Shown piece by piece: positions 1 to 7,127 of a stretch of DNA of 64,000 nucleotides (the stretch's first letter is position 1; each line of letters begins with the position of its first letter). The notes beneath the pieces are model-generated. The model saw nothing but the letters and a program-made list of their open reading frames with translations, was not told the DNA's origin and did not search any database. The position numbers and the translations under genes are program-made. Source of the stretch: an uncultured bacterium (GTDB taxonomy: Bacteria > Margulisbacteria > WOR-1 > CAVSGV01); NCBI GenBank assembly GCA_963699255.1, contig OY969425.1, forward strand, positions 935,112 through 999,111. The letters run 5' to 3'.

Positions 1-63
1 GGCGAGGGAGCTAGTTTACTTATGCAATGTTGCATATATCCCAAAAGCAAAAGCTGTTCCAAT

Positions 64-756
64 CTAAGAGGTTTTACTGTTGATTTGATCAATCAACTTT
101 TGAATTTTTCCAATGCCAATAAAGTCATCAACATGTCCCTTAGCCTTTGCCCATTTCATTAGTGGCACCTTTACCTTACCTTTTTCATCTTGTTCTGCTA
201 TTTTATCGATATCATCCCAATAAGTCCCAACATAATAAAAAAGAACCTTCATATCATTTTTCAATCCTTCTTTCAAAAGAAGGCCATTTAAGATTGCGCT
301 TCTGATGCTGTTTGTATCTAAAAAGTTGCCCTTGAACTCAATGAATACAGCCGTACCCCCCTCTTTAGTTTTCAAATAACAATCTGCTCCAATGGTTGCT
401 TTTTCGTTATTTAACTTTATCTCCACATTCCTCCTGGCCTGTTGAATAAGACCACAGCGGGCACTGACTAGCATACCAATCATTGTTTCCATGTAGTGGA
501 CATGGGCATTTGCTCTTCCTGATTTCATGTTAAGCCAATATTCCTGTATCTTATTAAGAACCTCTTCTTTCCACTTTTTTACCTCATTGCTATCCTCTTC
601 AAGAATTTCCAGGCTTTTTCTATACCATGGATAAGCGCAAGCCGTACTGGCATTGCTTGGGGTACATTTTGGCTTCAGGCATTCAATATTCATTTCCTTG
701 AAATTTGGATCATTGATAATCCGGACATTGTTGCAGGGTTTTACATTGTTTAACAT
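64..756 (-). CDS. Hypothetical protein, possible PD-(D/E)xK-type nuclease
   Basis: 230-aa ORF; motif GADCY...TAVFIEFKG fits a D-x14-E-x-K nuclease signature. Assignment by eye only. Confidence 0.35.
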   Translation of the reverse strand: MLNNVKPCNNVRIINDPNFKEMNIECLKPKCTPSNASTACAYPWYRKSLEILEEDSNEVKKWKEEVLNKIQEYWLNMKSGRANAHVHYMETMIGMLVSARCGLIQQARRNVEIKLNNEKATIGADCYLKTKEGGTAVFIEFKGNFLDTNSIRSAILNGLLLKEGLKNDMKVLFYYVGTYWDDIDKIAEQDEKGKVKVPLMKWAKAKGHVDDFIGIGKIQKLIDQINSKTS

Positions 757-776
757 GAGTTATAATATTCGAAGTA

Positions 777-1133
777 TTACGAACCGCCGATGTCGCGAAT
801 GGCCTTGCTTAGTGAAGTCTGCTTAAATGCTCCAAACATATTCCCATAAAAATTATGGCCCCATTCTTTCCATTGTTCTGTATTTTTACAACTGAGGCCG
901 AGATTGTCCAGATAGCTTTGAGGAATCCTAAGGCCAAATTCAATGATATCTTTTAGTACTATTATATCTTTTTGAAATTGATCGGGGTTTTCGTCTGGAT
1001 CCGCGAATCTATTGCGAGATACGTCTCTAATAATATCTATTAGGCGTGAGATATCATCACAGGTATATTCCCCGACATTGAAATTCTCGCTTATTTTCAA
1101 GAGAGCTTTGGCTTGTTCATCATTGAAATCCAT
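777..1133 (-). CDS. Hypothetical protein
   Basis: 118-aa ORF co-directional with and 20 nt from the upstream gene; no recognisable motif. Confidence 0.4.
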   Translation of the reverse strand: MDFNDEQAKALLKISENFNVGEYTCDDISRLIDIIRDVSRNRFADPDENPDQFQKDIIVLKDIIEFGLRIPQSYLDNLGLSCKNTEQWKEWGHNFYGNMFGAFKQTSLSKAIRDIGGS

Positions 1134-1213
1134 ATGTTTACCCCCTTAATTATTCTAATGGATACTATCGGTTGTGTTCGGGAGTATAACACACAGATAC
1201 AATAGGCTCCATC

Positions 1214-1465
1214 ATGAAAGCAATGTCATTCTATAAACCGGACAAAGCACTGCTTAAGGCGATAGCGCAAGAATTCAAATCAACACGGCTAAAGAGAGGA
1301 TTAACAATTGAGGAACTTTCTGATCTTTGCGGTTTACATGAGAAGTATCTGCAGACTATAGAAAGAAATCACAGAAATATATCCTTATCAGTATTTGTCC
1401 AGATAGCGAAAGCTCTTAAAGTATCGCCATCTAAGCTGCTTGAGAAGACACTAACAGCTAGATAG
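1214..1465 (+). CDS. XRE-family helix-turn-helix transcriptional regulator
   Basis: 83 aa; LTIEELSDLCGLHEKYLQTIERNHRNISLSVFVQIAKALKVSPSKLL is a classic Cro/C1-type HTH; divergent from the neighbouring element genes. Confidence 0.75.
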   Translation: MKAMSFYKPDKALLKAIAQEFKSTRLKRGLTIEELSDLCGLHEKYLQTIERNHRNISLSVFVQIAKALKVSPSKLLEKTLTAR

Positions 1466-1476
1466 CTTCTGACAAT

Positions 1477-4584: not shown

Positions 4585-4936
4585 GTGTCAACCCAATATA
4601 GAAAGTTCACAGCCTTCGTTGTATGATAAAAATCTAGGCACCAACCTCAAGCCACTTACAGGCGGTTGTTATGCCTCTTATTATTTATAATATGTCCGGG
4701 CTGGGTACCAATACCTTTTCTCTCAATGAACCTCCTCCCGTGTCTCAGTTACCTAACACTTTTCATCACCCTGTCACTGAGGCATTATTTTTCGCCTCCC
4801 TCTTTTTACGTGTGAATAGTGCTTCCTTGATTTGGGCTAAGCGCTTGTGTCAAGGTTGCGAATTTCGACATCGATATCTTCCAGTTCCCCTTTTGAATAA
4901 ATCGTGTCATAACAACTTCCTCCCCGTATGATTATT

Positions 4937-5392
4937 TTAGTGATGGTGGAAGTTCCCCCTATCAATTCCCCTTAAAAAGTAATCGTTTTTATCACGGATT
5001 ATCCACTTGAATGCAAAATCCTCGGCTATAGCTATGTCATCTTCTTCTCCAATTTCAACTTTTTTAATATTTTCACCGGATATCATTCCAGGTAAATATG
5101 CCAATATCATCATTTCCTCTTCATTATCTTGTTGACCAGATAAATATTTTTGAGCCTTAAGTAAGACACCTGCCAATTTAGCCCGATCAAACACCGAAGC
5201 AAAAGGATACTCGGCGTAAATGTTATCTTGTACATAATATTTGTTTTCTATTATCGCTTCATTCAGGGTTTTACCATTATCCATTCTTATTAATACGTCC
5301 ATCAAAGTATTAAAAGCATATTCCCCCAAAGACCCTACATATTCTTTTGCCCCGTCTTCGTAAATCACATAGATGTCTTCCATTTCAACCAT
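4937..5392 (-). CDS. Hypothetical acidic protein
   Basis: 151-aa ORF directly downstream of the ParB-like gene on the same strand. Confidence 0.45.
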   Translation of the reverse strand: MVEMEDIYVIYEDGAKEYVGSLGEYAFNTLMDVLIRMDNGKTLNEAIIENKYYVQDNIYAEYPFASVFDRAKLAGVLLKAQKYLSGQQDNEEEMMILAYLPGMISGENIKKVEIGEEDDIAIAEDFAFKWIIRDKNDYFLRGIDRGNFHHH

Positions 5393-5414
5393 CTCCTTTG
5401 TTCACACCTATTAT

Positions 5415-6722
5415 TCAGCGCCCTCTTTTATGCACCCCTTTATCTTTACGTTTGATTAGCGCTTCCCTGATTAGCCCTAGGCGCGAAATGATTGTGCCAA
5501 GGTTTTGAATTTCAACATCGATAGCTTCTGATCCCCTCAGCAAATCGGGTATTATAATTTGCAAGTCTTGGTCGATAATCATGTCAAGAAACCTACAGAT
5601 CGAGCCGATTGCTTTTCTATAATTCTGATAAACCCAATCTTCGGAAGTTTTACGTGTGGTTTCCTTATCAGCTCCCGGCATTAACATCTGTGAATCTTTT
5701 TGACGGATAGCTCGAATGGCATTCACAACATTACTATAGCTACATTTCTCAAAGTCCATATTCTCCGCCAGCTTTATGCGTTGATCAGGGTTAAGTGATG
5801 TTAATTGACTCACGGCTTCTGCTGGCACCTGACCCTCTCGTATCAATTTCTGCCAATAAGCATCTAAGTCCAGTACTGCGAGCTTGTTTACGAGTGCTAG
5901 TTCAGATAATCCGGTGACTTTCATTGCTTTTTCGACCTCCAAACCATCGTTTGCAAAATTTGCAAGCTCAGTCCCGCCTTCGGTGGTTACCTCATCCTTA
6001 CCCAATGCCTGACAAATGCCCCTTGCTTCCTCAATAGGCGTAAGGTTATCCCTATGCATATTTTCGTGAATGGAAACTTGTTTTGCCTTTTCGTCAGAAT
6101 AATTCTGAACTATGGCCTGTATCGTTGTTAAGCCAGCGATTCCATGTGCCCTGAACCTTCTCTCGCCAGCAACAACCTCATAGCCATCCTTATTTGGCCT
6201 TACGATTATTGGCTCGATAAGCCCAATCCCTTTAATAGACTCCGCCAACTCCCGCAAACTGGTCTCAGTAAAGCTTCTCCGAGGTTGGACATCGCACGGC
6301 GTAATCTTTGATATGGGGATTTCATGAACTTGGGCGATGACCTTTTCATTGTCATTATGGGACTGCGGATGCAACTCCTTTTCAATGGCGCTCACAGTCA
6401 ACTTGTCTTCAATGATACGCTTAACCCATTTGTCCCTTTCAGCCTGATCTTCTAATGTAAGCAACAGCCGGCATTTGGCCACCCCCAAATGTTGCATCGA
6501 TTCAACATCAAGTTGCTCTACTACACGAATAAGCTCGTAGGCGTTGGAACGATGCATATCGACATCCTTTTCAAGATATTCCTCGAACGTCTTGTATTTT
6601 TCCTTATACAAGCGGCCGTCTCGTATCTGCTTCAACCTTATCCCAATCTCCCAGCTATTTTTCCGGATATCGTTCCGCAAACTTACAATCTCATCAGTCA
6701 ATTTCTTTAACATTGCCATCAT
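5415..6722 (-). CDS. ParB/Spo0J-like nuclease-domain protein
   Basis: 435 aa; IEPIIVRPNKDGYEVVAGERRFRAHGIAGLTTIQAIV is the ParB N-terminal box. Confidence 0.75.
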   Translation of the reverse strand: MMAMLKKLTDEIVSLRNDIRKNSWEIGIRLKQIRDGRLYKEKYKTFEEYLEKDVDMHRSNAYELIRVVEQLDVESMQHLGVAKCRLLLTLEDQAERDKWVKRIIEDKLTVSAIEKELHPQSHNDNEKVIAQVHEIPISKITPCDVQPRRSFTETSLRELAESIKGIGLIEPIIVRPNKDGYEVVAGERRFRAHGIAGLTTIQAIVQNYSDEKAKQVSIHENMHRDNLTPIEEARGICQALGKDEVTTEGGTELANFANDGLEVEKAMKVTGLSELALVNKLAVLDLDAYWQKLIREGQVPAEAVSQLTSLNPDQRIKLAENMDFEKCSYSNVVNAIRAIRQKDSQMLMPGADKETTRKTSEDWVYQNYRKAIGSICRFLDMIIDQDLQIIIPDLLRGSEAIDVEIQNLGTIISRLGLIREALIKRKDKGVHKRGR

Positions 6723-7085
6723 CTCCTTTTCTTGCTGAACCCGCTCACCTGATTTGCGTTAACCTTTAACCGCCTCCCGTATCTATATCAGGATTTGTGG
6801 CGAGGAATTTCTTCGGTAATTCTTTTGATGTTTCCGTATGGCTTAGGGACAGTGGAAATACCACATTAATTGAAACTGAAGAGAATCATAACGATGCTAA
6901 TGAGTAGGAGAAGTGATTGACAGTAATTATTTCCCAGCCACCCGTGGTACACCCAACAGCCAAGAATCTGTGTAATATCATGGGCTATTTGGACACCATA
7001 GAAAGAAGCCGAAACCCTTTATTTATAAAAGAATCTCGGCTTTTTCTTGTTAATATGCTACAATTTAATAACTGTAGCGGGCAGT

Positions 7086-7127
7086 CTCATAACCCGAAGG
7101 TCGTAGGTTCAAATCCTACCCCCGCTA
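7086..7127 (+). other. tRNA-fMet-derived 3' fragment (anticodon loop CUCAUAA through T-arm and acceptor 3' strand); 5' half absent
   Basis: CTCATAACCCGAAGGTCGTAGGTTCAAATCCTACCCCCGCTA matches the 3' half of initiator tRNA-Met with compensatory T-stem changes, but the upstream sequence cannot form acceptor or D arms. Confidence 0.6.

Follow-up and report, generated by a model that had tools for sequence, protein, structure and literature searches.

A plasmid-like module beside a tRNA-Met fragment in a low-GC island of an uncultured WOR-1 bacterium, and its possible origin in an integrated mobile element

Transfer RNA genes serve as attachment (att) sites for genomic islands and small integrative elements, some of which build up tandem att arrays by the kind of accretion known from integrative and conjugative elements (ICEs) and cis-mobilizable elements (CIMEs), and the att sites fall into classes by their sublocation within the tRNA. 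An integrase that acts at such a site leaves a truncated 3' copy of the tRNA at the far end of the element while the intact tRNA stays at the near end, and crossovers in the anticodon loop and in the T-loop are each typical of different integrase groups. Here we describe a locus that we compare with these islands. It lies in a window of 64,000 nt, the whole stretch of DNA that we analyzed, from an uncultured bacterium of the GTDB lineage Bacteria; Margulisbacteria; WOR-1; CAVSGV01 (GenBank assembly GCA_963699255.1, contig OY969425.1, positions 935,112 to 999,111 of the forward strand). The subject is positions 1–7127 of the window, which a first-pass annotation had read, from the letters and their open reading frames (ORFs), as an integrated plasmid/phage-like element. 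Our best explanation, which we put slightly above even, is that this stretch and about 95 nt to its left form the plasmid-like module (module A) of a mobile element that integrated at a tRNA-Met site, one used several times over, inside a larger mosaic island of low GC, and that this module probably is defective or, at the least, no longer has its recombinase alongside.

The locus resembles tRNA-integrated islands in having a truncated tRNA 3' copy at its border, further short copies that bracket a segment without an integrase, and a deviant composition. Genes related to its Rep-like gene also adjoin tyrosine or serine recombinases at tRNA genes. Unlike those islands, no integrase, intact tRNA or att pair is seen for the module, and its left border is a synteny breakpoint without a repeat.

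The right limit of the module, position 7127, is the end of a 42-nt 3' half of a tRNA-Met (CAT) on the forward strand (7086–7127). Aligned to an annotated tRNA-Met, the fragment runs from the anticodon loop (CTCATAA, at 7086) to the acceptor 3' end at 7127, and the D-arm and the 5' acceptor strand are missing. With blastn, the DNA similarity of 1–7127 to reference plasmids and phages was confined to 7080–7127, where the matches were to tRNA-Met genes of many organisms (E ~1e-8). Neither ARAGORN nor Rfam reported an intact tRNA at this place, Rfam with permissive thresholds gave no match over 1–7300 and 6800–12200, and the sole tRNA in the window is a tRNA-Leu at 46245. By analogy with known integration sites, we regard the fragment as an attR-like scar; the intact tRNA-Met would then be expected further left, beyond the window.

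The last 17 nt of the fragment (AAATCCTACCCCCGCTA, from the T-loop to the acceptor end) are present in four copies where 0.21 would be expected by chance, at 7111–7127, 7221–7237, 11871–11887 (with two mismatches) and 11942–11958. Two copies fall in each of the repeat units R1 (7111–7251) and R2 (11871–11972), both on the forward strand. These are composite repeats of about 100–140 nt with a mutual identity of 92–93%, and they are the only repeats of at least 31 nt in the whole window. It is exactly at R1 and R2 that the Logan assembly breaks, and one of its contigs (L002) corresponds to 7211–11924. Between the repeats lies segment B (7238–11870, forward strand, 4.6 kb, low GC), with genes for DUF134, NifX-like, DUF2099, metallo-beta-lactamase (MBL) hydrolase, ArsR, thioredoxin, ferredoxin, S-adenosylmethionine (SAM) methyltransferase and YgaP-like proteins. 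We saw no recombinase in segment B, and the repeats that bracket it are direct. It looks like an att-flanked islet without an integrase of its own that could be mobilized by an integrase acting in trans. Since the truncated tRNA 3' copies differ in extent, and given what is known of tRNA att sites, the picture would be that of a hot-spot used repeatedly by different elements, with module A to the left of the array.

The base composition agrees between measures. GC content at third codon positions (GC3) is 0.27–0.54 in the genes of module A and 0.38–0.49 in those of segment B, as against 0.55–0.72 in the host-type genes beyond 21 kb, which include AcrB, H+-PPase, enolase and PilT and which we took as the reference. 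The GC profile along the window agrees with this gap. That 1–7127 is foreign, mobile-element-like DNA is in our view supported, and to that extent the first-pass annotation was right; its phage-like part is not supported, as we found no structural or lysis match in PHROGs. Could these instead be ordinary host chromosomal genes, with tRNA-like sequences that are due to chance or local repeats? Close database relatives are also few for many of the host proteins in the window, so the orphan status of several genes proves little. However, the GC3 gap, the 42-nt match to the tRNA-Met of many organisms, the domains typical of mobile elements, and a related contig (L012, described below) that does not have the module at the shared junction all stand against it, and we consider this reading extremely improbable.

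One gene of the module encodes a protein with a PriCT-1 domain, four cysteines and a winged helix (3727–4584, reverse strand, 285 aa; Pfam PriCT_1, 9e-8), whose true start is probably M20 at 4527. The nearest described proteins are ColE2 Rep and the plasmid primase-initiators of the RepE/RepS/PrimHYQ type, which consist of an archaeo-eukaryotic primase (AEP) domain, PriCT-1 and a helix-turn-helix (HTH), and origin binding and unwinding have been shown for the PriCT-1-HTH module of ColE2 Rep (Kazlauskas et al. 2018, PMC5862659). As in those proteins, a helical PriCT-1 domain is followed by a winged helix, some longer relatives carry Prim-Pol, and the folds match PriX and plasmid RepA. In an AlphaFold model built on the family alignment (mean predicted local distance difference test score, pLDDT, 85.5), the PriCT-1 helical domain matched PriX, and the C-terminal winged helix matched staphylococcal RepA initiators, DnaD-NTD and ORC/Cdc6. 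In contrast to those proteins, our protein is without the primase catalytic domain (there was no Pfam match to a Prim-Pol/AEP catalytic domain in it or its neighbors), and it has four invariant cysteines between its two domains. Because of the PriCT-1 and winged-helix folds, and by comparison with ColE2 Rep (PMC5862659), the protein may be an origin-binding initiator without a primase, or a factor that recruits a primase.

A word-indexed protein search with this protein returned only itself. With a full HMMER scan we recovered 175 cluster representatives, most of them 230–280 aa long and aligned end to end. Most of these relatives also do not have a primase catalytic domain, and in some of the longer ones the module is joined to Prim-Pol, AEP-TOTE or DnaG-Toprim domains. 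C60, C141, C149 and C156 are invariant in 28 aligned members at about 30% identity, and the family also has a conserved C-terminal motif. The invariant cysteines suggest that a metal or Fe-S site lies in the stretch that separates the PriX-like domain from the winged helix. Weak tblastn matches, four in all, were to "primase C-terminal domain" genes of Paenibacillus plasmids, and three of these were no more than about 5 kb from an end of the record.

In all five of the related loci that we looked at, an integrase gene lies 0.3–2 kb downstream of the PriCT-1/winged-helix gene, and two of these integrases are beside a tRNA. In an Elusimicrobia metagenome-assembled genome (MAG; L009) a tyrosine integrase abuts a tRNA-Ser, and in an uncultured bacterium (L010) a large serine recombinase overlaps the 3' end of a tRNA-Gln. 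An Actinomycetes MAG (L011) and the contig of the closest relative (L014, 43% identity) each have a tyrosine integrase with no other feature that we noted, and the contig of the second-closest relative (L015) has a tyrosine integrase with Xis-like and XRE-like genes alongside. The arrangement in L009 is unusual in that the element is on the 5' side of the tRNA: the tyrosine integrase ORF (11668–12936) overlaps the 5' part of the tRNA-Ser, on the same strand, by about 55 nt. The pairing with integrases makes a strong circumstantial case for the family as a marker of small integrative elements. Since all five relatives have one, the missing downstream integrase in our window is conspicuous; a tblastn search with two tyrosine integrases from the related loci gave no match in the window or in L001, the contig that extends it.

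This Logan contig, L001 (run ERR10755942, 9001 nt), is 100% identical to 1–6809 of the window and reaches 2192 nt further left. No repeat of at least 15 nt is present in the window where the contig ends (6809); its end there may be due to strain variation, to a structural variant or to a repeat in some other part of the metagenome. The first-pass annotation had the element cut by the window edge. This is true only in part: the string's last gene is complete, with its end at 64, and the sequence does go on to the left, without further replication genes. The extension encodes a secreted BsuPI-type protease inhibitor, a 405-aa protein and the start of another ORF. By eye, the 405-aa protein is outer-membrane-like, with a signal-peptide-like N-terminus and a C-terminal Phe, and it has no Pfam match. 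No tRNA was found in these 2.2 kb.

A contig from JGI (L012), the only related contig that we could compare, matches L001 at about 95% identity, beginning with the start codon of BsuPI. Further upstream, it has ilvN and an ilvC truncated at codon 124 in place of the 230-aa gene and the rest of the module. The synteny with L012 thus breaks about 95 nt left of the window start, and we therefore place a recombination breakpoint there, which would make module A about 7.2 kb long. When L012 1–1140 is set beside L001 6747–6911, the truncated ilvC is seen to run straight into the start codon of BsuPI. The left neighbors of the BsuPI/405-aa cluster thus differ between the two genomes, and the cluster may be mobile itself, or the contig may be chimeric. 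The flank of L012 with the truncated ilvC has a GC of 0.36, so the origin of L012 is uncertain.

It is possible, though we think it doubtful, that we are looking at part of an intact and still mobile integrative plasmid or mobilizable island, whose integrase and intact tRNA-Met lie more than 2.2 kb to the left and for which the BsuPI and 405-aa genes are cargo. The low GC (0.36–0.39) and the gene orientation do continue through the 2.2-kb extension, the main ORFs are all intact, and the orientation of the genes relative to the tRNA is as in L010, which has its recombinase right beside the intact tRNA at the far end. What speaks against an intact element is that the integrase is within 2 kb of the PriCT-1/winged-helix gene in five of five relatives but is not found within 6 kb downstream here, that synteny with L012 is lost precisely at the junction of the 230-aa gene with BsuPI, and that the module carries internal duplication scars. 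The first-pass annotation had proposed to extend the contig until the integrase and the opposite att were found; both are absent from the window and the 2.2 kb to its left. We believe that the module is probably defective because there is no integrase or second att within 9.3 kb, because the synteny breaks just past the last gene, and because of the scars of duplication and pseudogene formation.

The scars are as follows. The sequence at 4800–4885 (reverse strand) is about 80% identical to the 3' end of the parB gene (5440–5535, about 95 nt) with a 7-nt deletion, a degenerate copy. The 151-aa orphan ORF (4937–5392, reverse strand; acidic, pI 4.5; GC 0.35, among the lowest in the string) is thus flanked by direct repeats of the parB 3' end, and for this reason it is apparently a cassette inserted downstream of parB. 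The 5' end of a zinc-ribbon gene has an 88-nt tandem duplication (2967–3127). From 2967 to 3726 (reverse strand) there is a decayed stretch of duplications and small paralogous ORF fragments without a Pfam match; the fragments fill about 700 nt up to the PriCT-1/winged-helix gene, and a 42-nt repeat pair (3134–3175 and 3446–3487) lies among them. These internal duplication scars suggest decay.

Several points weigh against our reading of a defective module in an integrated element. Everything that would complete such an element (integrase, intact tRNA and matching att repeats) is missing from the sequence we could reach, the window and 2.2 kb beyond it: none of the ORFs scanned (1–21.5 kb and L001) had a recombinase domain, the 17-mer AAATCCTACCCCCGCTA is absent from L001, and no repeat of more than 9 nt is common to the left junction and the right end. 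The breakpoint argument is weakened if L012 comes from another organism or from a chimeric assembly. Low-GC DNA runs at least 2.2 kb further left, so an integrase may lie beyond it. The larger ORFs are all intact and tightly packed, and the module may still function. In addition, no origin, iterons or parS were identified in the module, and the functions of ParB, the PriCT-1/winged-helix protein and the 230-aa protein are deduced from domains or folds.

Module A is a string of 11 tightly packed ORFs on the reverse strand with a single ORF on the forward strand. Every gene named in the first-pass annotation is present at the positions and on the strand given there. Its description of the string as replication and partition genes was partly borne out: there are ParB, PriCT_1 and SSB domains, but no ParA, no canonical parS and no catalytic domain of a primase or helicase. 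Five ORFs (64–756, 777–1133, 2146–2301, 2333–2557 and 4937–5392) had no significant match in Pfam, PHROGs (for the four ORFs other than the 51-aa one at 2146–2301), PADLOC or NCBIfam, and four of these (all except the 51-aa ORF) had already been listed as unknowns, correctly in that they belong to no family in these databases. Searches of PDB sequences gave no meaningful match.

The ParB-like protein (5415–6722, reverse strand, 435 aa) has ParB_N (3e-27) and HTH_ParB domains in Pfam, matches TIGR00180 (parB_part) in NCBIfam at 3e-32, and has the motif GERRFRA in its translation. In this it is like Spo0J/Noc and the ParB of ParABS systems, which share the CTPase-type N-terminal domain and the ParB HTH. 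It differs from them in that its N-terminal extension and its C-terminal half are unique to it, relatives covering only about 25–55% of the query, and in that there is neither a ParA gene among the ORFs of the module nor a canonical parS with up to three mismatches allowed; a non-canonical parS may be present. The homologues of this ParB were uninformative, as all were of the generic Spo0J/Noc type and the one context that we inspected was a chromosomal origin region. IMG/VR gave no match to it. Between parB and the tRNA fragment there is a terminator-like hairpin (7006–7042, reverse strand), from a promoter and terminator scan of the region that performed no better than it did on shuffled sequence.

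Plasmid leading regions, the first to enter a recipient, carry orphan ParB-like proteins, SSB and small genes of the anti-restriction type. A ParB without ParA, a short SSB, small acidic orphans (pI 4.5–4.9) and a single direction of transcription would fit a conjugative element, either an ICE or an integrated conjugative plasmid, with the module as part of its leading or maintenance region. We nevertheless think this unlikely. No relaxase, coupling protein, type IV secretion system (T4SS), ArdA/ArdC or PsiB was found among the scanned ORFs of the window or in the 2.2-kb extension, although these could lie further left, and the elements with relatives of the PriCT-1/winged-helix gene are only 3–8 kb, which is too small.

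The single-stranded DNA-binding protein (SSB; 1784–2149, reverse strand, 121 aa, a short form; Pfam 2e-31) and the DUF2958 protein (1477–1800, reverse strand; Pfam 3e-21) are encoded by genes that overlap by 17 nt and make up a cassette (1474–2168, reverse strand). The cassette is 86% identical in DNA to a JGI contig (L003), with the similarity ending at the cassette borders, and it sits among unrelated genes both there (134–830) and in a second contig (L004, 3470–4142). In JGI metagenome sample 3300027896, the pair appears to move as a unit between otherwise unrelated elements. The SSB is of the bacterial type, and by eye the usual acidic C-terminal tip is missing. The tRNA acceptor sequence and the DUF134 and DUF2099 genes had at first hinted at archaeal DNA, a reading that we rejected in view of this SSB, the AcrB efflux pump, PilT and the 405-aa protein that by eye is outer-membrane-like. 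We found nothing relevant on DUF2958 in the literature.

In IMG/VR, DUF2958 has homologues on two phage contigs only, at 43% identity and with no other genes in common. These homologues, the XRE regulator, a Rep-like protein with a primase C-terminal domain, the relatives linked to integrases, and the Xis-like, XRE-like and integrase genes that stand side by side in L015 could be put together as a phage satellite or a defective prophage remnant. This seems to us very unlikely. No capsid, terminase, tail, lysis or packaging-related protein was matched by PHROGs in the module; its matches were to regulators, SSB and ParB-type proteins, along with a weak one (E 4e-4) to an HNH-endonuclease category for a 79-aa ORF, and nothing else. 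Apart from the tRNA fragment, there is no DNA similarity to 50,697 phage records, and with the pattern that we used, no member of the PriCT-1/winged-helix family was found in IMG/VR.

The left end of the string carries two of the orphan genes that had been proposed as anti-defense or toxin-type cargo. An 83-aa regulator of the XRE family (1214–1465; Pfam HTH_3, 1.4e-13; PHROG transcriptional regulators) is the sole gene on the forward strand, and the earlier claim of a divergent XRE regulator is thus confirmed. On its left are the 118-aa ORF (777–1133, reverse strand; acidic, pI 4.7) and, 20 nt downstream, the 230-aa ORF (64–756, reverse strand; basic, pI 8.9), which likely form one operon divergent from the XRE gene. 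The 80-nt region in between (1134–1213) has an inverted repeat, TGTGTT-N10-AACACA, that is a candidate operator. The first-pass annotation had called the 230-aa product a possible nuclease. It has the motif D125...E140-x-K142, and a single-sequence AlphaFold2 model of it, a poor one (pLDDT 46), places alpha-beta-beta-beta-alpha-beta around the motif. The top Foldseek matches of this model were mostly PD-(D/E)xK nucleases (Card1, the Cas4-family ACE1 and EndoMS) at E 0.017–0.3 and a probability below 0.5, so that a PD-(D/E)xK nuclease is a weak lead. A word-indexed search with the 230-aa protein returned only itself, and a scan of genome contigs with it gave no match. With tblastn, neither the 118-aa and 230-aa ORFs against reference plasmids nor the 151-aa ORF against reference plasmids and phages found a match.

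The pair could possibly be a regulated nuclease or toxin pair. It is like the nuclease and toxin cassettes controlled by C-proteins or XRE regulators in having a small XRE gene beside an operon whose second product has D...ExK, and it is unlike them in that the regulator is divergent and there is no methyltransferase, no profile or confident structural match, and no PADLOC match. PADLOC had no match among the eight window proteins and two L001 proteins that were scanned, with a library made up of known defense systems and anti-defense outside its coverage. As the PADLOC, PHROGs and NCBIfam searches and the tblastn searches against plasmids and phages were all empty, an anti-defense or toxin role for the unknown genes has no positive support and is speculation.

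The remaining genes of the string are small and lie on the reverse strand. They are the 51-aa orphan (2146–2301; no Pfam match), a 74-aa orphan (2333–2557) for which NCBIfam lists one match far below threshold and which belongs to no family at significance, and the 79-aa cysteine-rich zinc-ribbon-like ORF (2783–3022), which has only weak, sub-threshold matches to Pfam zinc fingers.

Putting these parts together, we propose that module A is the plasmid-like replication and maintenance part of a mobile element that integrated in a site-specific manner, and that it occupies the right end of a larger mosaic island of low GC, for which a tRNA-Met gene served as the att site. An element that carried the 3' half of a tRNA-Met would have recombined with the tRNA-Met gene of the host and left 7086–7127 as attR, and other elements that used the T-loop part of the same tRNA would have left the 17-nt copies that now bracket segment B. 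The PriCT-1/winged-helix protein would bind, and perhaps open, the origin of the element; because it is without a primase domain, it would depend on host enzymes or a partner to go further. ParB would act in segregation or silencing as a DNA clamp of the CTP type, the short SSB would form with DUF2958 a cassette exchanged between elements, and the XRE repressor would control the divergent operon, which may encode an acidic partner and a PD-(D/E)xK nuclease.

Three other features of the window are of a similar kind. An ORF6N (KilA-N-like) gene at 17006–17530 lies between direct repeats of about 120 nt (16884–17002 and 17649–17759, 83–93% identity), as a small cassette-like unit. At 17867–19344, a second low-GC patch (0.34–0.41) has genes for a BglII-like restriction endonuclease and an N4/N6 DNA methyltransferase, a type II restriction-modification island that is separate from the module at 1–7127. 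Between two genes at 15955–16026 there is a 29-nt inverted repeat, 83% complementary with a 14-nt loop and made of GAGATCAGAGA-like units.

On its own, this locus is one more mosaic tRNA-gene island in an uncultured anaerobe, with orphan genes, and nothing that we found has a bearing on anti-defense biology. Its modest value is in the hot-spot, where several elements would have used different parts of one tRNA-Met gene, and, as its main feature, in that it points to a coherent family (about 175 clusters) of integrase-linked PriCT-1/winged-helix proteins without a primase. A bolder proposal, which we offer tentatively and regard as a good deal less than probable, is that the PriX-like protein with its four cysteines represents an undescribed family of primase-less initiators, always paired with an integrase, of integrative elements of 3–8 kb across phyla (Elusimicrobia, Actinomycetes and uncultured lineages). 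A metal or Fe-S cluster, such as the primase large subunit has, would perhaps be held by the cysteines, our module would be a larger member equipped with ParB and SSB, and the XRE-controlled 118-aa and 230-aa pair would be a possible new nuclease-based toxin or exclusion cassette. A class of miniature integrative elements may have this PriCT-1/winged-helix family as its replication initiator.

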